A DNA stretch of 38,673 nt from a virus: IMG/VR virus record IMGVR_UViG_3300031673_006185. One strand, written 5' to 3'. The notes under the pieces were generated by a model, which saw only the letters and a list, made by a program, of their open reading frames with translations, did no database searches and was not told where the DNA came from. Shown piece after piece: positions 522-34,059 of the stretch. A program made the translations under genes and the position numbers. Each line of letters starts with the position of its first letter. The stretch's first letter is position 1.

Positions 522-1724
522 ATGGAATTCAAAATAGAAGACCATACCATTTTCATTACGCTTCATGGAAGTCATGCTTATGGTATGGCAACATCTGGAT
601 CTGATGTGGATGTTAAGGGCATTGCCATTCCACCGCGAAACTTTTTTCAAGGATTCTCTAAAAGATTTGAGCAGTTTGAGGGAGAGTTTCCAAGACAATA
701 TGATAACTTTATTGGTAAAATTGAACAGATTGTTGGTAGAAAAGTGCCAGATAATGAACGCATTGATTCTACAATCTATGATATACGAAAGTTTTTAAAG
801 CTTGCATCTGATTGTAATCCAAACATTATTGAAGTTCTTTTTACTGATGAGCGTTTACATCTTGTAACATCTCCAGCACTTATTAAATTAATAGAAAACC
901 GAGATCTTTTTCTTTCTACAAAGGCTAAGTTTCGTTTCTGCGGATATGCTTTTGCCCAACTTAAAAGAATAAAAACCCATAGATCTTGGCTACTCAATCC
1001 GCCAAAAAACAAGCCCTTAAGAGAAGATTTTGGTTTGCCAGAGCGTAGCCTTATACCACGAGATCATAGGGAAGCAGCAGAGGGTTTGATAAAGAAACAA
1101 GTAAATAAATGGCTTCTATTAGAGGATGAGCTTCCCCGAGAGATCTTAGAGTCTGTTCGCATAAATACGATTGAAACCATTATAGAGGTGTGGGAATCGT
1201 TGATTGGATTGGCCGCAGAGTATGATGTTACTGGCAACATACCATTCCCTATAATCGATGGAGAGTTTGATATCAATACTCTGTCCAATGCTGCTGGCGT
1301 AAGACTTGGATATGATACAAACTTTCTGGCACTCTTGGATGCCGAGCGAAGATACAAGGGAGCACTTAAGCATTATAATCAATATCAGGAATGGAAGATC
1401 AATCGAAATCCAGCCCGAGCTTCGATGGAAGCAAAATTTGGCTATGATGGAAAGCATGCCAGTCATCTTGTAAGACTTTTACGTATGGCTGAAGAGATTC
1501 TGACAGATGGTAAAGTAATTGTTTGTAGGCCAGATGCGGAAGAACTGCTGTCGATTAGGCAGGGGACTTGGAAGTTCGATGACCTAATCCAATGGGCGGA
1601 TAATCAACAACATAAACTTGATGAATTTTATGAGTCCGGCAAATCGCCATTACCGAGAACTCCTAATTATAACAAGATTGATAAACTTTGTATGGAGATC
1701 GTACAGGAGTCGTTTTTTAAATGA
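522..1724 (+). CDS. predicted nucleotidyltransferase, RlaP/COG3541-like (minimal NTase fold)
   Basis: The N-terminus LHGSHAYGMATSGSDVDVKG fits the GS-x-YG ... SDxDxxG signature of the RlaP / minimal nucleotidyltransferase family; it is 400 aa, with a long helical C-terminal region as in that family. Confidence 0.6.
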   Translation: MEFKIEDHTIFITLHGSHAYGMATSGSDVDVKGIAIPPRNFFQGFSKRFEQFEGEFPRQYDNFIGKIEQIVGRKVPDNERIDSTIYDIRKFLKLASDCNPNIIEVLFTDERLHLVTSPALIKLIENRDLFLSTKAKFRFCGYAFAQLKRIKTHRSWLLNPPKNKPLREDFGLPERSLIPRDHREAAEGLIKKQVNKWLLLEDELPREILESVRINTIETIIEVWESLIGLAAEYDVTGNIPFPIIDGEFDINTLSNAAGVRLGYDTNFLALLDAERRYKGALKHYNQYQEWKINRNPARASMEAKFGYDGKHASHLVRLLRMAEEILTDGKVIVCRPDAEELLSIRQGTWKFDDLIQWADNQQHKLDEFYESGKSPLPRTPNYNKIDKLCMEIVQESFFK

Positions 1725-2158
1725 GAACCTTTATATTAGCATTGATGGTAGGAATTATTGGATGCGGAGGTGAACCTGTTGTGGATGATCAAGAAGAAGA
1801 TGTATCCATTCAGAAAGAACCTGCTGCGAATGAAGAGAGTTGTGGAAACAATGTATGTGAAAGAAACAAAGGAGAAGATTATTGGAACTGTCTTGACTGT
1901 GTAGATTTGTTAACTGGTGGGCCAACAAACGGCTATTGTGGAGACGGTGTGTGCTTTAATGAAACTATGTTTGATTGTTGGACAGATTGTAGACCACACG
2001 CTTCTAATCCCGCAGCATTTGATGACGATGTTCCGCAGCCTGGAAAAAACATAAGAATACTAATTGATCAAGGGCCTTGGCCCGGCATCGAGCCGATACC
2101 AAACCCAGGGCCACTTCCAGGACCTCCAAAGAAAGAGGTTGAGGATAGGAGATGGTAA
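1721..2158 (+). CDS. Cys-rich lipoprotein with a Pro-rich C-terminus
   Basis: Signal peptide plus lipobox (MRTFILALMVGIIGC). It has about 12 Cys in CxxxC-type spacings, then PGPLPGPPKKE. It overlaps the upstream gene by 4 nt (ATGA) and the MVP gene by 7 nt. Confidence 0.55.
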   Translation: MRTFILALMVGIIGCGGEPVVDDQEEDVSIQKEPAANEESCGNNVCERNKGEDYWNCLDCVDLLTGGPTNGYCGDGVCFNETMFDCWTDCRPHASNPAAFDDDVPQPGKNIRILIDQGPWPGIEPIPNPGPLPGPPKKEVEDRRW

Positions 2159-4707
2159 AAATTAATTTTAGTCCACCGCCAGAAAATGTAGGAACAGTCA
2201 ATGAGCGGTGGGAAACAAACAATCAACAAGAAAAAGAGGAGAGTAAAATGGCTGAACGTTCAGAGAGAGAGTTGGTGCTTGCCCCAAATGAGTATGCTTT
2301 TATTCTTGACACCACCAAGGGTAATGTAAATTGCTATGTTGGTCCTAATAAGACCAGTCTCGCTGGTACTGATAGTATGGTAGCTTTTAATGAGAAGACT
2401 AAAAGATTCGAGCCTGTTGCGTTAGATCGTGCCGTCCAAACGTTTAAGACTGCTCCAAGCAACTGGTATATGATTATGAAGAATCCTGCTAAGGATTCTG
2501 CTCATCCGCAGCCTGGTCCGTCTAATAGTCTTCCGCCTCTCCAGGTTGGTAAGAAGGTTAACATCCATGGCCCATCGTCTTTTGCTCTTTGGCCTGGTCA
2601 GATGGTAAAGGTTATTGAAGGTCATAAACTTCAATCAAATCAGTATCTTCTGGTTAGAATCTATGATCATGAAGAGGCCAACAAGAATATTGAAGGTATC
2701 TATGGTGGTAAGGTTCCAGAGGATGTAACTGATCTTTTCGCTGGCCAGAAAGTAATTATCAAGGGCACCGATGTTTCTTTTTATATGCCCCCAACTGGTG
2801 CGGAAGTTATGCCCGATGATAATGGTGATCTTGTACGCAACGCAGTTACTCTGGAACGTCTTGAGTATTGTGTGCTGGTTGGTGAGAATGGTGAGAAGGA
2901 ATATCGTCGTGGTGAGGATGTAGTCTTCCCGAGGCCGGATCAGAAGTTTTTGACAAGCAATAGTTCGAGGAAGTTCCGTGCTATCGAGTTGGATGAAACG
3001 ACTGGTCTTCATGTAAAGGTGATCGCTCCTTATGTGGATGAAGAGAGTGAGCGACGAGAGGGTGAAGAGCTGTTTATTACTGGCAAAAACAAGCTGTATT
3101 TTCCGAGAAAAGAACACGCTATTATCCGTGATGAGGGTGGTAATCAGCTTCACCACGCGGTTGCTGTTCCTAAGGGCGAAGGTTTGTATGTTCTGAATAA
3201 GCAGTCTGGTGATGTAAAAACTATTACTGGTCCCAAGATGTTTCTTCCCGATCCCAGAACTGAGGCGGTAACGCAGAGGATTCTTAGTGATCGTGAGTGT
3301 TCTCTCCTTTATCCGGGGAACAAAGAGGCTTTGGATTTTAACCAGCAATTGCGTGGTGCTATTGAAGTAACTGTTGCCACCAACTCTGCTGAGGCTATGT
3401 CTAAGGTTCTTAGTAATCGTCAGAGACGTGGTCCTACCAAGGGCGGGGCCGAGGTTGCTGCGGAAGCTCTGGCAGAGATGGCGTCCAGTGATTGGGCTGG
3501 CGACGGGTTTACTCGTGCTGGGTATGATGCTAAGCCCAGAAGCATTACCATTGATAACAAGTATCGTGGTACTGTTGCCTGTGATATTTGGTCTGGATTC
3601 GCTGTTCAGATTATTGATAAGGCTGGTAACAGGCGTGTGGTGGAAGGCCCGATCAATGGCGTGCTCATGGAGTATGACGAGACTGTTGAAGCCCTACATC
3701 TTTCTATGGGCAACCCCAAGTCTACCGATAAGATGTTGGCTACAGCGTTTTTGAAGACCAGAAATAACTATGTGTCTGATACCGTTGGAATTATTTCCAG
3801 GGATCTTATTATGGCACAGGTTAAGATTAAATATCTTGTTGATTTTGTTGGAGAAGACAAGGGCATGTGGTTTGCGGTTGACAACTATGTCAAGCTGCTT
3901 TGTGATCATGCTCGATCTAAAATCAAGGCTGTTGCTCGTAAGACTTCGATCAGTGATCTTCAGAAGAATATTTCTGAAGTTATTCGTGATACTGTTTTGG
4001 GTGCGAAGCCAGATGCAGGCATTCGTTCTGGTCTGGTATTTGAAGAGAACAGCATGGTTGTAAGAGATGTTGATGTGCTGTATTTTGAGATCACTCAAAA
4101 AGAAGTTAAGGATCTGATGTTTAGCAGTCAGATCGGTGTTGTGCGAGACAACATTGTGTTGGAACAAAAAGAGTCAGAGTTGGCCAATCAAAAGAGGCTT
4201 GAGGAGATTAGTCGGGCACTGGAGCAAGAGCGCCATATGACTGAGGAACTTCGAAGGCAACTGCGGTTGAAGAGTGAAGAGGGAGAGGCTGCTTATCGGT
4301 CCTCTGTTTTGACATTTGAGGATTCTTTAAGGGACCAGAGGGAAGCTTCTGATATGGCTACAGCTCAGCACGAGATGTTGCTTCAGGAGAAGCGTCGGCA
4401 GGATAAGCAGAAAGAGCATGAGCTTGATCTGAAGCGTAAGGCTGATCTTCAGGAACTTAACATTACCTATCTGAAGGAGAAGGTTGATGGGGCTGTTAAG
4501 CAGGCTACTGCGTTCTCGCCGCACATTGTTGAGGCTGTGAAGAGACTGGGCGATGCTCAGTTGCTGTCTTCTCTGGCCGAGAATTTTGGTGAACTTGCTG
4601 CTATCGAGGGTAAGGGTTTGTTGGCGGTAGCGAATAAGTTCTTAGACTTCAAGCATACGGGGGCTATGATTCCGATGCTGAAGGAACAATTTGAGTCGGG
4701 TGAGTAA
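2152..4707 (+). CDS. major vault protein (MVP) homolog
   Basis: 851 aa. N-terminal tandem ~55-aa repeats carry MVP-repeat hallmarks: PNEYAFILD...VGPNKTSL, FALWPGQMV, KGTDVSFYMP, comparable to human MVP PPYHYIHVLD...VGPKTYI, FPLYPGEVL, EGPGTYIP. A shoulder-like region follows (VSDTVGIISRD...). A ~150-aa coiled coil follows (ELANQKRLEEISRALEQERH...), like the MVP cap helix. The C-terminus GDAQLLSSLAENFG resembles MVP GPEMQVKLLQSLG. Confidence 0.65.
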   Translation: MVKINFSPPPENVGTVNERWETNNQQEKEESKMAERSERELVLAPNEYAFILDTTKGNVNCYVGPNKTSLAGTDSMVAFNEKTKRFEPVALDRAVQTFKTAPSNWYMIMKNPAKDSAHPQPGPSNSLPPLQVGKKVNIHGPSSFALWPGQMVKVIEGHKLQSNQYLLVRIYDHEEANKNIEGIYGGKVPEDVTDLFAGQKVIIKGTDVSFYMPPTGAEVMPDDNGDLVRNAVTLERLEYCVLVGENGEKEYRRGEDVVFPRPDQKFLTSNSSRKFRAIELDETTGLHVKVIAPYVDEESERREGEELFITGKNKLYFPRKEHAIIRDEGGNQLHHAVAVPKGEGLYVLNKQSGDVKTITGPKMFLPDPRTEAVTQRILSDRECSLLYPGNKEALDFNQQLRGAIEVTVATNSAEAMSKVLSNRQRRGPTKGGAEVAAEALAEMASSDWAGDGFTRAGYDAKPRSITIDNKYRGTVACDIWSGFAVQIIDKAGNRRVVEGPINGVLMEYDETVEALHLSMGNPKSTDKMLATAFLKTRNNYVSDTVGIISRDLIMAQVKIKYLVDFVGEDKGMWFAVDNYVKLLCDHARSKIKAVARKTSISDLQKNISEVIRDTVLGAKPDAGIRSGLVFEENSMVVRDVDVLYFEITQKEVKDLMFSSQIGVVRDNIVLEQKESELANQKRLEEISRALEQERHMTEELRRQLRLKSEEGEAAYRSSVLTFEDSLRDQREASDMATAQHEMLLQEKRRQDKQKEHELDLKRKADLQELNITYLKEKVDGAVKQATAFSPHIVEAVKRLGDAQLLSSLAENFGELAAIEGKGLLAVANKFLDFKHTGAMIPMLKEQFESGE

Positions 4708-4714
4708 TTAACTT

Positions 4715-4748
4715 GGGGGCGGGGAGAAATCCCCGCCCCTCTATTTTC
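4715..4748 (+). terminator. rho-independent terminator after the MVP operon
   Basis: GGGGCGGGG-AGAAAT-CCCCGCCCC forms a 9-bp GC stem, followed by TCTATTTTC. Confidence 0.75.
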
Positions 4749-5529: not shown

Positions 5530-5844
5530 ATGGAACCAAAACGCACAAGAAGGTTATTATTATACATCTTTTTACTTAATATTGCAGACACTATTTTTAC
5601 ATGGATATCGGTTAATGGAGATGCCGCATATGAAATCAACCCCACTGTTAATTTGCTATTAAGCTGTGGCCCCGTTGGTTTTTTCTGTGTTAAAATTGGA
5701 CTGGTCTCACTGGCTCTTTTGTTTGCGTATGTAAGGATAAAGGTAGATGCTCCAAGATACATTTATGTATTCACTGCTGTAGTAGTGATTATGTTAGTCA
5801 TTGTAATTCTTGGATTTCTAGGAACACTTCTAACATTTTTATAA
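5530..5844 (+). CDS. small membrane protein (104 aa)
   Basis: Three predicted TM helices; starts 1 nt after the previous stop. Confidence 0.45.
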   Translation: MEPKRTRRLLLYIFLLNIADTIFTWISVNGDAAYEINPTVNLLLSCGPVGFFCVKIGLVSLALLFAYVRIKVDAPRYIYVFTAVVVIMLVIVILGFLGTLLTFL

Positions 5845-5856
5845 CGGAGAGAAATT

Positions 5857-6498
5857 ATGTTTCTTCCTTTAATTGAAAAATGTGAATCTGCTGGTTCTAA
5901 TAAGAAGACGACTATAATTAAGAAAAACTTAGAAGAAATGTTTGAAGAGAGACGATCAACACTAATGATTCTTCCATCAATAAGCAGACAAGTCTTGAGC
6001 ATGGCACAGTCTTTGCCAGGCTGTTTGTTGGCTGGTGGAGCAGCTCTTGAGTTATACACTGGTGATATTAATAAGATAAAGGATTGGGATCTGTTTTTTG
6101 CTCGGTCTGAAGGTTATAAAGAAGCCCAACATAAGTTGAAAGGGCTTGGTTTTGTGGGAACAGATCGCTCTGAATGGAGCTGGACTATGGAAAAATCTGG
6201 TGTGGTGGTTCAACTTATAACCAGATTTTATACATCGTCACCCGCCGATTTGTTTAATCGCTTTGATTTTTCTGTTTGTTGCTTTGCTGTTAAAGGACCA
6301 GACATTTATTATACAGAGCAGGCTGCGGAAGATGTTGAACTCAAGAGGCTGACTTATATTTATACGGATAATATTATCAGTAGCATTAAAAGAGTTGCAA
6401 GATATGGTCATAAGGGCTACATGCCTACAACGCAGTGTGTTATAGATTTATTGAAGCAATGCAAGTTTATTCCAGAAGACGGGCCGGGTTGTAGTTAG
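5857..6498 (+). CDS. putative Pol-beta-superfamily nucleotidyltransferase
   Basis: LAGGAALELYTGDINKIKDWDLFF fits hG[GS]-x9-13-DhDh; RBS GGAGAG. The fold assignment is tentative. Confidence 0.4.
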   Translation: MFLPLIEKCESAGSNKKTTIIKKNLEEMFEERRSTLMILPSISRQVLSMAQSLPGCLLAGGAALELYTGDINKIKDWDLFFARSEGYKEAQHKLKGLGFVGTDRSEWSWTMEKSGVVVQLITRFYTSSPADLFNRFDFSVCCFAVKGPDIYYTEQAAEDVELKRLTYIYTDNIISSIKRVARYGHKGYMPTTQCVIDLLKQCKFIPEDGPGCS

Positions 6499-6508
6499 GG
6501 ATATCATT

Positions 6509-7123
6509 ATGAATCAACGACAAATTAAAGCAATACGCAAAAATCCTGATGACGTAAATTGGATATTACTATGCGAAGAGGAAAAATTATCCGAGGATTT
6601 TATAACAGAGTTTAAAGATAAAGTGGTTTGGGATCGCATTTCAAAATATCAGAAATTATCTGAAGATTTTATAGACAAGTGTCAAGACAGAGTTGATTGG
6701 TATTATATTTCAGTATATCAAAAACTTTCGGAAGAGTTTATTGAGAGCTTTAGTCATCTTGTAGACTGGGATCAGATCAGCTTCTACCAACAACTTTCAG
6801 AACGGTTTATGATTAAGCATTGCGATAAACTTGAGTGGGAAAATATATCTGAATCTCAAATATTATCTGAAGATTTCATAGCAACATTTCACGATAAACT
6901 TGAGTGGGATGCGATTTCCCGAAATCAAATACTATCTGAGGATTTTATGTCGGCGTTTAAGGATAAATTAAGTTGGCCGATGATATCTCGTGCTCAAATA
7001 TTGTCTGAGGATTTTATAGCAGAGTTTCGAGATATGGTTGATTGGTGGTATATTAAATCAAGACAAAAGTACTCGCAAGAATTTGTACAACACTTTAAAA
7101 CTGAATTAGAAAGGGCGCGATAA
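6509..7123 (+). CDS. repeat protein with six or more ~22-aa 'W-x-IS-x-YQKLSEDFI-x-F-x-DKVDW' repeats
   Basis: The period is visible in the translation (ISKYQKLSEDFIDKCQDRVDW / ISVYQKLSEEFIESFSHLVDW / ISESQILSEDFIATFHDKLEW ...). Paralogs start at 25773 and 38288. Confidence 0.6.
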   Translation: MNQRQIKAIRKNPDDVNWILLCEEEKLSEDFITEFKDKVVWDRISKYQKLSEDFIDKCQDRVDWYYISVYQKLSEEFIESFSHLVDWDQISFYQQLSERFMIKHCDKLEWENISESQILSEDFIATFHDKLEWDAISRNQILSEDFMSAFKDKLSWPMISRAQILSEDFIAEFRDMVDWWYIKSRQKYSQEFVQHFKTELERAR

Positions 7124-7125
7124 TA

Positions 7126-8256
7126 ATGTGGTCTTTTACTGGTTTTGGGGCGAGATTAGATCTGTCCAAAGTGCGATCTGATTTCCGGCAGGTTTCGGAT
7201 AGCGGATTAACTTTTATATGTCCCAGAAAAAATATGTGGGATTGGAGTTTCGAAGAGAGATTCCTGCGTTCAATTATCGTTGATCAGGATGGCTATGTAG
7301 TATCATCAGGTTGGCCAAAGTTTGGAAACTATGGCGAATTTTTGGATGATACTGAAACGCTTAAAAAAGATCTTGAAGATGGTGCGCCTGTAAGATTTAG
7401 CCACAAAGAAGACGGATCTCTGTGTATTCGATCAGTTATAAATGGCCAGGTAATTCTTCGTACTCGTGGAACCTTATATGGTGGCGAGCGTGGAGAAGAT
7501 GGAATGGAATCTTATAAGGAAAGATTTTTTCGAACTGCCCAGAAGTATCCGAAAATATTAGATTCTAACTGGATGACAGACCGATCTCTTTTATTCGAGT
7601 ATGTAGCACCAGGCAATTTAGTTGTAATACGATACAAGGAAGAAGACTTGGTGTTCCTTGGGTATGTAGATCATTCTTTACATATCGGGCACTGGTCTGA
7701 GGTGGAAGCTGTGGCGAAAGAGGGCCAGTTAAATCTTGTACGTCTGCACGATCTGCCACGAGATCCGTTGGAACTCTTGGAAATTATAAAGACTTGGAAA
7801 GATGAAGGTGTGGTTGCCAGATGTGATCAAGATCAGGTAATGGTCAAAGTAAAAAGCGCCCATTACCTGGCCCAACACAGGATGAAGTTCTCCATAAATT
7901 ATAGATTTATGGTAGAGTTTGCGGAACTATCTGGTATTAATAGTGAAGCAGACTTAATAAAAGAACTACAGGCTTGTGATTATGATTATGAGATTATAGA
8001 AACTACCCTTCCGTTTTATCATAGATACAAAAGAGCGTCTGTTTCTGTTGATAATACGATACATGAAGCTCATGAGGTAATCAATAACTTTTCGTCTGAT
8101 AAAACCGATGAGGTTGGAAGGAGAAAAGAACTTGCTATGTTGATAAGCAAACTACATGGACATATCAAGCCATTTGTGTTTGCTCTTTATGATAAGAAGA
8201 TGAGCAGAGTGGACGCTCTTAGACGAAAAACAATTCTAACCGAGGGTAAAAGATGA
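7126..8256 (+). CDS. ATP-dependent RNA ligase (T4 Rnl1-like)
   Basis: Motif I FSHKEDGSL (KxDG, the Rnl1-type KEDGSL), motif IV EGVVAR, motif V MVKVKSAHY; 376 aa. Confidence 0.65.
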   Translation: MWSFTGFGARLDLSKVRSDFRQVSDSGLTFICPRKNMWDWSFEERFLRSIIVDQDGYVVSSGWPKFGNYGEFLDDTETLKKDLEDGAPVRFSHKEDGSLCIRSVINGQVILRTRGTLYGGERGEDGMESYKERFFRTAQKYPKILDSNWMTDRSLLFEYVAPGNLVVIRYKEEDLVFLGYVDHSLHIGHWSEVEAVAKEGQLNLVRLHDLPRDPLELLEIIKTWKDEGVVARCDQDQVMVKVKSAHYLAQHRMKFSINYRFMVEFAELSGINSEADLIKELQACDYDYEIIETTLPFYHRYKRASVSVDNTIHEAHEVINNFSSDKTDEVGRRKELAMLISKLHGHIKPFVFALYDKKMSRVDALRRKTILTEGKR

Positions 8257-30341: not shown

Positions 30342-32458
<2,117 letters not shown>

Positions 32459-33537: not shown

Positions 33538-34059
33538 ATGCAAGACGAAAAGCAGACAAGAATTAACAAGAATATCAAAGCTAAAACAGTGCTATTAATT
33601 GATGAAGAGGGTAATAATATTGGTCATGTTAACTTTTTAAAAGCACTTGCTATGGCAACGGATTCTGGATTAGATTTGGTAGAAGTTAGTTCTGGCAAAG
33701 ATGTGCCTGTTTGCAGGATAATGGACTATGGCAGGTGGCGTTATGAGCAGTCAAAACGCACTAAGAAAAATAAAAACCAGAATAAGACTCAAGGAAACAA
33801 GGAGATAAAGTTTCGTCCCAATACTGGAGAAAACGATTTGATTTATAGGGCGAAGCAGTTAGATGGTTTTATTAAAGAGGGATATAGAGTAAAACTATGT
33901 GTGCGGTTTAGGGGAAGAGAAATTGAGCACATGTATAATACCGGCAGAGATTTATTGGAACGATTTCTTAGTTTCATTACTGTTGGTTATAAAATGATTG
34001 GTACTGCTGTTGTAGAAGGTAAGACCATCTCTCAATGGTTAGGTCCGGAAAATGAGTAA
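33538..34059 (+). CDS. infC: translation initiation factor IF-3
   Basis: VCRIMDYGRWRYEQSKRTKK, EIKFRP, CVRFRGREIEHM; collinear with IF3 N- and C-domains; RBS GGGAG. Confidence 0.88.
   Translation: MQDEKQTRINKNIKAKTVLLIDEEGNNIGHVNFLKALAMATDSGLDLVEVSSGKDVPVCRIMDYGRWRYEQSKRTKKNKNQNKTQGNKEIKFRPNTGENDLIYRAKQLDGFIKEGYRVKLCVRFRGREIEHMYNTGRDLLERFLSFITVGYKMIGTAVVEGKTISQWLGPENE

Follow-up and report, generated by a model that had tools for sequence, protein, structure and literature searches.

The function of the eukaryotic vault has been open since 1986. Its shell is formed by major vault protein (MVP), assembled as 39-fold half-vaults and 78-mer cages (rat, human and rabbit proteins; PDB 4V60, 4HL8, 9BW5, 9R86), and its minor components are PARP4, TEP1 (TROVE, NADase) and vault RNA. 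Bacterial homologs of MVP were reported in 2013 and 2019, from Myxococcota, from Bacteroidota such as Saprospira, Microscilla and Cytophagales and from other groups (Daly 2013, PMC3762200; Sokolskyi 2019, bioRxiv 10.1101/872010), and two MVPs of gut Caudoviricetes, ctOa11 and ct2Ri15, followed in 2023 (Santos et al., bioRxiv 10.1101/2023.11.10.566534); the latter are tailed phages whose MVPs are nearest to the bacterial ones and which lack TEP1 and vPARP. Here we describe an MVP homolog encoded at positions 2152-4707 (+ strand) of a 38,673-nt stretch of DNA from the viral record IMGVR_UViG_3300031673_006185 (hereafter the window), with emphasis on the region 522-4748. The window is best read as part of the genome of a large, uncultivated (jumbo-type) bacteriophage, because of its gene content and because tblastn with the MVP matched only huge phages. 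In our opinion the data as a whole are best explained, with a probability of roughly 0.65, by a genuine MVP, encoded by a swappable phage accessory gene that has no dedicated partner, whose product would form a vault-like shell with a role in phage-host conflict.

The large open reading frame (ORF) specifies 851 amino acids (aa) when read from ATG 2152, or an 819-aa core when read from ATG 2248 (Met33). It matched the Pfam family MVP_shoulder (PF11978) with 64.7 bits (E 1e-17, cutoff 25), residues 538-647 corresponding to profile positions 2-116 of 118, while a match to Vault_3 (21.6 bits, E 2.5e-4) stayed under the cutoff of 28.8. In a phmmer search of PDB sequences, major vault proteins were the only matches (1.5e-11 for rat and human MVP), and the alignment was colinear, with residues 472-789 of the ORF facing rat MVP 455-788.

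The domain architecture was examined on an AlphaFold2 (AF2) monomer model of the core, built on 88 homologs, with a mean predicted local distance difference test score (pLDDT) of 77; core residue numbers count from Met33. Behind residues 1-43, which were modelled with low confidence, the model contains a body of stacked small beta-repeat domains (core 44-342; 2377-3273; pLDDT ~90) and a helical or disordered insertion at the position of the eukaryotic repeat R8 (core 348-435; 3289-3552), also of low confidence (pLDDT 37-59 for helices 359-392 and 400-414). These are followed by an R9-like repeat and an SPFH-type shoulder (core 444-615; 3577-4092; pLDDT 93-96), which align to rat 455-646 and contain an LSxGxPK motif facing the NAD-binding keyhole loop of human MVP, and by a cap helix modelled as a single alpha helix of 136 residues (core 618-753; 4099-4506), aligning to the rat cap helix (rat 647-788). 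The protein ends with helices 758-787 and 791-799 and a disordered tail, together cap-ring-like (4519-4704); in this C-terminal region the segment LGDAQLLSSLAENFGELAA is strongly conserved across the MVP family. All of these features are encoded on the + strand.

Foldseek comparison of this model with the PDB retrieved 12 MVP entries (E 6e-33 to 5e-27, 734-770 aligned columns). The template modelling (TM) score was only ~0.48, since a flexible, elongated shape lowers this measure. The crystal structures 3GF5, 3GNG and 3GNF, which contain only repeats R1-R7 of murine MVP, were also matched (E 3e-12 to 2e-11), whereas SPFH proteins (prohibitin, HflK/C, flotillin, stomatin) aligned with the shoulder region only (E 1e-6 to 1e-3). 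The beta-repeat array is thus recognised at the level of structure, its only sequence-level trace being the Vault_3 match under the cutoff. The large ORF is therefore a genuine full-length MVP homolog and not merely a generic SPFH or coiled-coil protein, and the sequence-only reading of this stretch, which had assigned it to MVP on the strength of N-terminal repeats, a shoulder, a cap helix and a cap-ring-like tail, is borne out by Pfam, phmmer, AF2 and Foldseek alike.

With the eukaryotic proteins the phage MVP has in common the length class, the colinear order of domains and the LSxGxPK motif of the keyhole loop. It differs from them in having only ~18% identity, in repeats that have diverged beyond the reach of the Pfam Vault repeat models, in an 88-residue helical or disordered insertion in the place of R8 and in the replacement of most residues of the NAD pocket. 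Counterparts of the minor vault components were also sought: no PARP or TROVE match was found by Pfam among the 23 larger ORFs of the window, and an Rfam scan of the window gave 0 matches, including vault-RNA-like or other known RNAs, so that PARP4, TEP1 and vault RNA have no counterpart within the scanned set. The bacterial MVPs belong to the same family and branch as the phage protein, and the closest cellular relatives are proteins from metagenome-assembled genomes (MAGs) of Myxococcota and Bradymonadia (47-53% identity over >94% of the length). These bacterial genes are solitary, whereas the phage copy lies in an accessory and anti-defence array of a genome with ~39% GC. The window phage is set apart by description from ctOa11 and ct2Ri15, being of another lineage and another habitat (environmental samples).

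Other cage-forming proteins resemble the phage MVP to a lesser extent. The SPFH/band-7 proteins HflK/C (with FtsH), prohibitin, flotillin and stomatin form closed oligomeric cages and match the shoulder and the helix that follows it, but they carry a membrane anchor, lack a repeat body at the N-terminus and can be aligned over only ~220-280 residues. Encapsulins and the shell protein of the jumbo-phage nucleus (chimallin) are analogous only in function, as self-assembling compartments; their folds are unrelated to that of MVP, and no HK97-fold, encapsulin or chimallin structure occurred among the Foldseek matches in the PDB and BFVD. The encapsulin-like compartment that had been considered for this protein is thus not borne out. 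The best viral structural match in BFVD was A0A3G5A4K1 of Harvfovirus sp., an 802-aa giant-virus protein labelled as containing a prohibitin domain (835 columns, E 2.4e-11, low TM), which may be an MVP-like protein of a eukaryotic giant virus.

The protein adds to a family of prokaryotic and viral MVPs that has already been described. Homologs outside eukaryotes had been taken to be rare, but this view does not hold. A database clustered at 90% identity contained >5,415 MVP clusters at E <1e-5, many of them already labelled 'major vault protein' by JGI, and an exhaustive profile search of 1.84 billion representatives at 50% identity returned 1,660 clusters, 754 of them at E <1e-30. Two peptide patterns alone detected MVP in 368 of 185,579 GTDB species, belonging to Myxococcota, Bacteroidota (Saprospiraceae, Cytophagales, Microscilla), Riflebacteria, Chloroflexota, Desulfobacterota, Spirochaetes and others, as well as in 81 IMG/VR viral contigs, mostly of 60-480 kb. 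A tblastn search of 50,697 phage records gave 3 matches, LR756501 and LR756503 (735 kb) and LR756500 (462 kb), with identities of 35-37% over >90% of the protein. At 60% identity the phage MVPs form ~40 lineages, a diversity that speaks for selection of the gene in phages. We found no paper linking MVP with jumbo or huge phages, and vaults are unmentioned in a comparative survey of jumbo phages (PMC7824862). What goes beyond the literature that we found is that MVP genes occur widely in jumbo and huge phages and look ancient there, that they have no fixed partner, and that they often lie among genes of RNA repair and NAD/ADP-ribose metabolism.

The phylogenetic position of the protein was estimated with a rough neighbour-joining tree of 162 sequences, drawn without support values and without eukaryotic MVPs. 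The clade of the window protein is sister to the Myxococcota/Bradymonadia MAG clade mentioned above and stands next to a second clade, linked to RlaP and DUF2828 genes. The phage MVPs occupy many deep branches, which speaks for a long stay in phages with repeated exchange and against one recent capture.

In the region 522-4748 the MVP gene is preceded by two other ORFs of the + strand, which are real, as had been proposed. The first (522-1724) encodes a 400-aa nucleotidyltransferase (NTase) of the RlaP family (RNA-ligase-associated, Pol-beta), and the second (1721-2158) a small predicted lipoprotein of 145 aa. The NTase and lipoprotein ORFs share a 4-nt ATGA overlap; the lipoprotein and MVP ORFs overlap (by 7 nt) only if ATG 2152 is used. 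Downstream of MVP there is indeed a strong intrinsic terminator (4715-4748, + strand) of the structure GGGGGCGGGGA-GAAA-TCCCCGCCCCT followed by CTATTTTC; nine of the 11 bp in its stem are G-C pairs, the loop is GAAA, and a T tract comes next. This terminator is identical in L001, a longer contig that stems from the same phage. The start of the transcription unit must lie upstream of RlaP, because an 88-aa ORF (253-519, + strand) abuts this gene, ending 2 nt before its start. In L001 the nearest strong upstream terminator (17-bp stem, L001 1393-1433) lies ~2.9 kb before RlaP, with tightly packed genes between them. RlaP, lipoprotein and MVP are therefore the last three of ~11 genes located between two terminators.

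Comparison of related loci revealed that MVP is a swappable accessory gene, residing in a variable slot between the RlaP-lipoprotein genes and a pair of genes for a DUF5658 and a Gad2-like protein. This conclusion follows from three arrangements. In L173 and L174 the frame of RlaP-lipoprotein and DUF5658-Gad2 genes is kept and the place of MVP is taken by another cassette (L173 5194-9455, L174 2002-6273), encoding a Ser/Thr protein kinase, an unknown 331-aa protein, pyruvate kinase and adenylosuccinate synthetase; hmmsearch found no MVP in the fetched L173 and L174 loci. In L005 RlaP is followed directly by MVP (76% identical), without the lipoprotein. In L006, whose MVP is 52% identical, the order is RNA ligase, AAA ATPase, Lon and MVP, the stop codon of Lon overlapping the start of MVP. 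The kinase/metabolic cassette of L173 and L174 is unusual for a phage. The DUF5658 gene (5530-5844 in the window) precedes the Gad2-like gene (5857-6498), and L004, L173 and L174 have retained this pair on the downstream side of the slot. The 213-aa product of the latter gene is listed as Pfam Gad2 (anti-Gabija, NTase-like) in precomputed tables, and a local Pfam scan gave no match for it.

The surroundings of MVP were then surveyed more broadly, by calling ORFs in 92 loci, clustering them and running iterative profile searches; the MVPs concerned fall into 64 phage groups at 85% identity. RlaP lay within 10 kb of MVP in 18 loci, representing 8 of the 64 groups. Other families found near MVP were AAA ATPases (12 groups, the most frequent family tested), RNA ligases of three types (~11), DUF2828/DUF7788 proteins (5), YpsA-SLOG proteins (5), metallophosphoesterases (3) and Lon (3), as well as PARP-domain proteins in 3 loci. 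RlaP, RNA ligase, AAA, DUF2828/DUF7788, YpsA-SLOG, metallophosphoesterase and PARP genes were all absent from 80 bacterial MVP loci, where MVP is a solitary gene in unrelated chromosomal contexts. BLAST clustering, iterative HMM (hidden Markov model) searches and a Pfam survey all failed to reveal a conserved partner of MVP. For the Pfam survey 131 immediate neighbours were taken from 40 lineages of phage MVPs (60% identity). Each family was seen at most twice, and those seen have largely RNA-repair and NAD/ADP-ribose functions (RtcB, RlaP, AAA_33 kinase, HD, cREC_REC, NADAR, CTP_transf-like, YpsA-SLOG, RF-1, SpoU). A role as a defence system was not retained, since neither MVP nor RlaP nor the lipoprotein gave a match in a PADLOC scan.

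These data bear directly on the proposal that RlaP, lipoprotein and MVP act together as a dedicated system of three genes, with the NTase or the lipoprotein either carried inside a vault-like or encapsulin-like compartment as cargo or helping to assemble it. The overlaps between the ORFs and their common terminator speak for such a system, as does the adjacency of RlaP and MVP, which is retained in relatives whose MVP is 76-87% identical and recurs, at distances of 0.4-5 kb, in a second phage clade with ~40% identical MVP. RlaP homologs occur, however, in 582 phage records against the 3 with MVP in the same collection, and no more than the 8 of 64 groups, and none of the 80 bacterial loci, have RlaP close to MVP. 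Moreover, the trio is broken up in L005, L006, L173 and L174, the lipoprotein being absent from the first of these and accompanying RlaP without MVP in the last two; the transcription unit is much larger than three genes; RlaP has an established class of partners, the RNA ligases; and neither a targeting peptide nor a fusion was seen. We therefore consider a dedicated three-gene system very improbable, and advise against passing on the notion of a three-gene vault operon.

The identity of the NTase, which had been recognised as RlaP-type, is well founded. Its gene product matched Pfam RlaP (PF10127; 63.4 bits, E 3.4e-17, cutoff 23) and phrog_388 (1.2e-62 over residues 5-396), and its N-terminal region carries the Pol-beta motif GSHAYG...SDVDV, with the motif HGSHAYGMATSGSDVDV present in the sequence; PADLOC gave no match for it. 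RlaP is the RNA-ligase-associating NTase and the commonest NTase of jumbo phages, with a distribution that mirrors that of RNA ligases (PMC7824862). A T4 Rnl1-type RNA ligase is encoded 5.4 kb downstream of RlaP on the same strand (7126-8256, +; Pfam RNA_lig_T4_1, 3.1e-11; NCBIfam T4 RnlA family, 1.9e-13, under its cutoff), and RNA ligases also occur near RlaP in the second MVP phage clade. RlaP would probably work with the downstream ligase in the repair of tRNA or other RNA, and not as a component of a vault.

The lipoprotein likewise has the Cys- and Pro-rich composition attributed to it, its lipidation being predicted from sequence. An N-terminal signal peptide ends in the lipobox IIGC at residues 12-15, MRTFILALMVGIIGC fitting the pattern [LVI][ASTVI][GAS]C, and is conserved in L004 (VAVGC); the protein contains 9 Cys and 16 Pro residues, two CGxxVC...CxxDC repeats and a Pro-rich tail. 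It is lineage-specific: no match was found in Pfam, PHROG, NCBIfam or PADLOC, and its family comprises only 13 clusters among 5.8 billion proteins. As the arrangements in L005, L173 and L174 demonstrate, the lipoprotein tracks RlaP and not MVP. It may be a lineage-specific envelope protein that travels with RlaP, rather than a dedicated vault component.

Another possibility raised by the neighbouring genes is that the MVP shell is a scaffold of the SPFH type, organising or gating the phage AAA ATPase and Lon protease in the manner of the HflK/C-FtsH and prohibitin-m-AAA cages. The shoulder indeed has the fold of the prohibitin, HflK/C, flotillin and stomatin cages. The AAA ATPase (8253-9614) and Lon (9614-11968), both identified by Pfam and encoded on the + strand, start 3.5 kb downstream of MVP in the window, and the pair lies likewise in L005; it recurs near MVP in L006 too, with the Lon-MVP overlap already described, and AAA ATPases head the list of families found within 10 kb. 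On the other hand, AAA is a very broad family and Lon is near MVP in three groups only; MVP has no membrane anchor, Lon is soluble, and the bacterial homologs show no linkage to proteases. Such a scaffold therefore appears improbable.

A different role would be that of a nucleotide sponge or reservoir whose shoulder pockets would bind NAD+, ADP-ribose or related signals, buffering NAD or sequestering immune signals of the host. The human shoulder binds NAD+, ADP and ADP-ribose (PMC12280208; bioRxiv 10.64898/2026.05.01.722283). The LSxGxPK motif, which includes the equivalent of the phosphate-contacting K506, is nearly invariant in the prokaryotic and phage family. Suitable neighbours are the nicotinate phosphoribosyltransferase (NAPRTase) of the window, the NAD synthase of L004, the PARP and Macro proteins of LR756500, and NADAR, cREC and CTP_transf-like proteins elsewhere. 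The pocket of the human protein, however, is formed by R437, R504, K506, R507, H509, R511, D521, F522 and W545, and in the alignment via rat MVP the phage protein has N, K, S, D and M at the positions of R504, K506, R507, H509 and R511, and N, Y and V at those of D521, F522 and W545. Furthermore, the affinity of the human protein is only in the tens of micromolar, and the neighbour theme is one of raw counts. A direct transfer of the human NAD pocket to the phage MVP is uncertain, K506 being the sole conserved basic residue of the keyhole. Binding of some nucleotide by the phage MVP is possible, in view of the conserved motif; we regard a function as sponge or reservoir as rather unlikely.

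Two sets of neighbours deserve mention in their own right. In the 462-kb huge phage LR756500 (L012 1493-13435) MVP is flanked by genes for a PARP catalytic-domain protein (6.2 kb from MVP), an R2K ATP-grasp protein, an AAA protein, an Rnl2-type RNA ligase, an HD-plus-kinase protein, a DFP-like protein and a Macro-domain protein, surroundings that echo the association of eukaryotic vaults with PARP4 and NAD/ADP-ribose. In one phage clade (L018, L022, L023, L028, L031, L032, L033, L044, L059, L067, L079 and L080) a 510-520-aa protein with DUF2828 and DUF7788 is encoded just upstream of MVP (e.g. L059 8279-9808), accompanied by an RlaP-like NTase, a metallophosphoesterase, an RNase T-like exonuclease and an RNA ligase. 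The idea that DUF2828/DUF7788 proteins (5 groups) are TROVE/vWA proteins resembling Ro60 or TEP1 was abandoned, as neither a PDB profile search nor a relaxed Pfam scan gave a TROVE signal.

Returning to the explanation that we prefer, that of a partnerless, swappable MVP, the repeat body, shoulder and long cap helix are all retained and strongly conserved in the family. Because these are the three elements that drive assembly of the eukaryotic protein, the phage MVP would probably self-assemble through lateral contacts of the same parts, and the product in the cytoplasm of an infected cell would be a vault-like shell, either closed or half. A more speculative idea is that this shell could serve the phage in a conflict over RNA damage and NAD/ADP-ribose signalling, where it would enclose or scaffold enzymes or RNAs, or bind nucleotides.

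Several points weigh against this explanation. Eukaryotic MVP is known to build cages, whereas the phage protein is known here from its gene and a monomer model, and cage formation by prokaryotic and viral MVPs in general is argued from such data and by analogy with the eukaryotic protein. The AF2 model has low confidence at core residues 1-43, the part that makes the waist contacts in eukaryotes, and in the insertion 348-435. The keyhole loop with which human MVP binds NAD has five basic residues, and four of these are replaced here. The bacterial homologs stand alone in unrelated contexts, and a role in conflict may therefore not be general. The theme of RNA-repair and NAD genes consists of raw counts, taken without a genome-wide background: a single-copy gene of a 200-kb phage would be found within 10 kb of MVP in ~10% of cases by chance, which is near the 8 of 64 groups observed for RlaP, so that this figure alone is not significant. 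The repeated close adjacency of RlaP and MVP, the sole remaining hint, is suggestive.

A stronger form of this explanation holds that true vault-like cages are formed in infected bacteria and act in an arms race over NAD+/ADP-ribose and RNA damage, either by sequestering NAD or ADP-ribose or by sheltering RNA-repair enzymes or tRNAs. We consider it unlikely, though two recent findings point in the same direction: TEP1 of humans is a NADase of the TIR-like type with a relationship to an antiphage system (bioRxiv 10.64898/2026.05.01.722283), and the human shoulder binds NAD and ADP-ribose. If it were true, the vault would be an ancient device of immune conflict, for which phages and bacteria offer a tractable model. 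That MVPs are widespread in jumbo phages, have no fixed partner and often lie near RNA-repair and NAD genes fits recent work tying parts of the human vault to NAD hydrolysis and antiphage-like immunity. Since a phage MVP can be expressed, imaged and deleted in bacteria, it provides a cheap route to learning whether cages are formed and what they contain.

The start of the MVP coding sequence is ambiguous. Both ATG 2152 and ATG 2248 (Met33) are preceded by a Shine-Dalgarno sequence; Met33 and its own Shine-Dalgarno sequence are present in every lineage, and close homologs of 814-821 aa begin at this residue. The 32-codon extension between the two (2152-2247) is conserved as a peptide in 4 lineages, absent in L005, P0002, P0005 and P0006, and interrupted in L004 by a frameshift and stop codons. 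We had considered Met33 as the settled start, preceded by an 89-nt spacer holding a conserved hairpin with a compensatory change, but this was dropped in view of L175, P0004 and P0008, where the extension is open, encodes the conserved peptide F-x-PP-x-EN-x-G-x-V-x-ERW and shows several differences from the window that are synonymous. The core protein starts at Met33, and production of a longer isoform from ATG 2152 is plausible in this phage, so that two MVP isoforms are possible. Between the lipoprotein stop codon and Met33 there is a stable stem-loop (2172-2212; CCACCGCC...GGCGGUGG; z = -3.8). Its arms are preserved in L004, where G-C has replaced an A-U pair, and for the most part in L175. 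This structure may be a regulatory RNA element, or it may be a by-product of the codons for Pro-Pro (CCACCG) and Arg-Trp (CGGTGG), which are reverse complements.

All genes of the window lie on one strand, and its GC content is ~39%. The MVP gene is part of a long co-directional accessory array with functions in RNA repair, proteostasis, NAD salvage and anti-defence. This one-strand array, with its RNA ligase, Lon, GroEL, NAPRTase, E1/E2/JAB and HNH genes and its PHROG matches, constitutes a phage setting. Several ORFs matched PHROG families, among them those of HNH endonucleases and one labelled as a phage 'translation initiation factor'. Further genes recognised by Pfam encode a DUF7227 protein, an ATP-dependent DNA ligase, a methyltransferase, a DHH phosphoesterase and an M50 peptidase; no tRNAs were found in the window. 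Such a gene content also bears on whether MVP could be a component of the virion or of its assembly, i.e. an inner-body, scaffold or decoration protein. In favour of this, many virion proteins of jumbo phages are uncharacterised, and MVP builds shells by self-assembly. On the other hand, the gene lies among enzymes and anti-defence genes, the 38.7-kb window contains no structural genes, hundreds of bacteria carry a homolog as a solitary gene of the chromosome, and the slot is swappable in related phages. A place in the virion is thus extremely improbable.

Among the remaining genes, three consecutive ones (15739-18605) encode proteins with Prok-E2_D, Prok-JAB and ThiF (E1) domains, the ThiF protein giving a weak match to the PADLOC E1-E2 model. 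They resemble a phage set for ubiquitin-like conjugation or deconjugation, which may counter host systems of the CBASS or Bil type. The NAPRTase, an enzyme of NAD salvage, is encoded at 19043-20425, and a NAD synthase gene is present in the close relative L004 (2081-2986), 5 kb upstream of MVP; the two are consistent with a phage counter to NAD depletion by the host. A 204-aa protein (6509-7123), without a meaningful family match, is built of about eight tandem repeats of ~24 residues (W..IS.YQKLSEDFI..F.D.V). Finally, the window encodes a GroEL-type chaperonin (30845-32458), ~53% identical to enterobacterial GroL, and the protein of the PHROG 'translation initiation factor' family (33538-34059).

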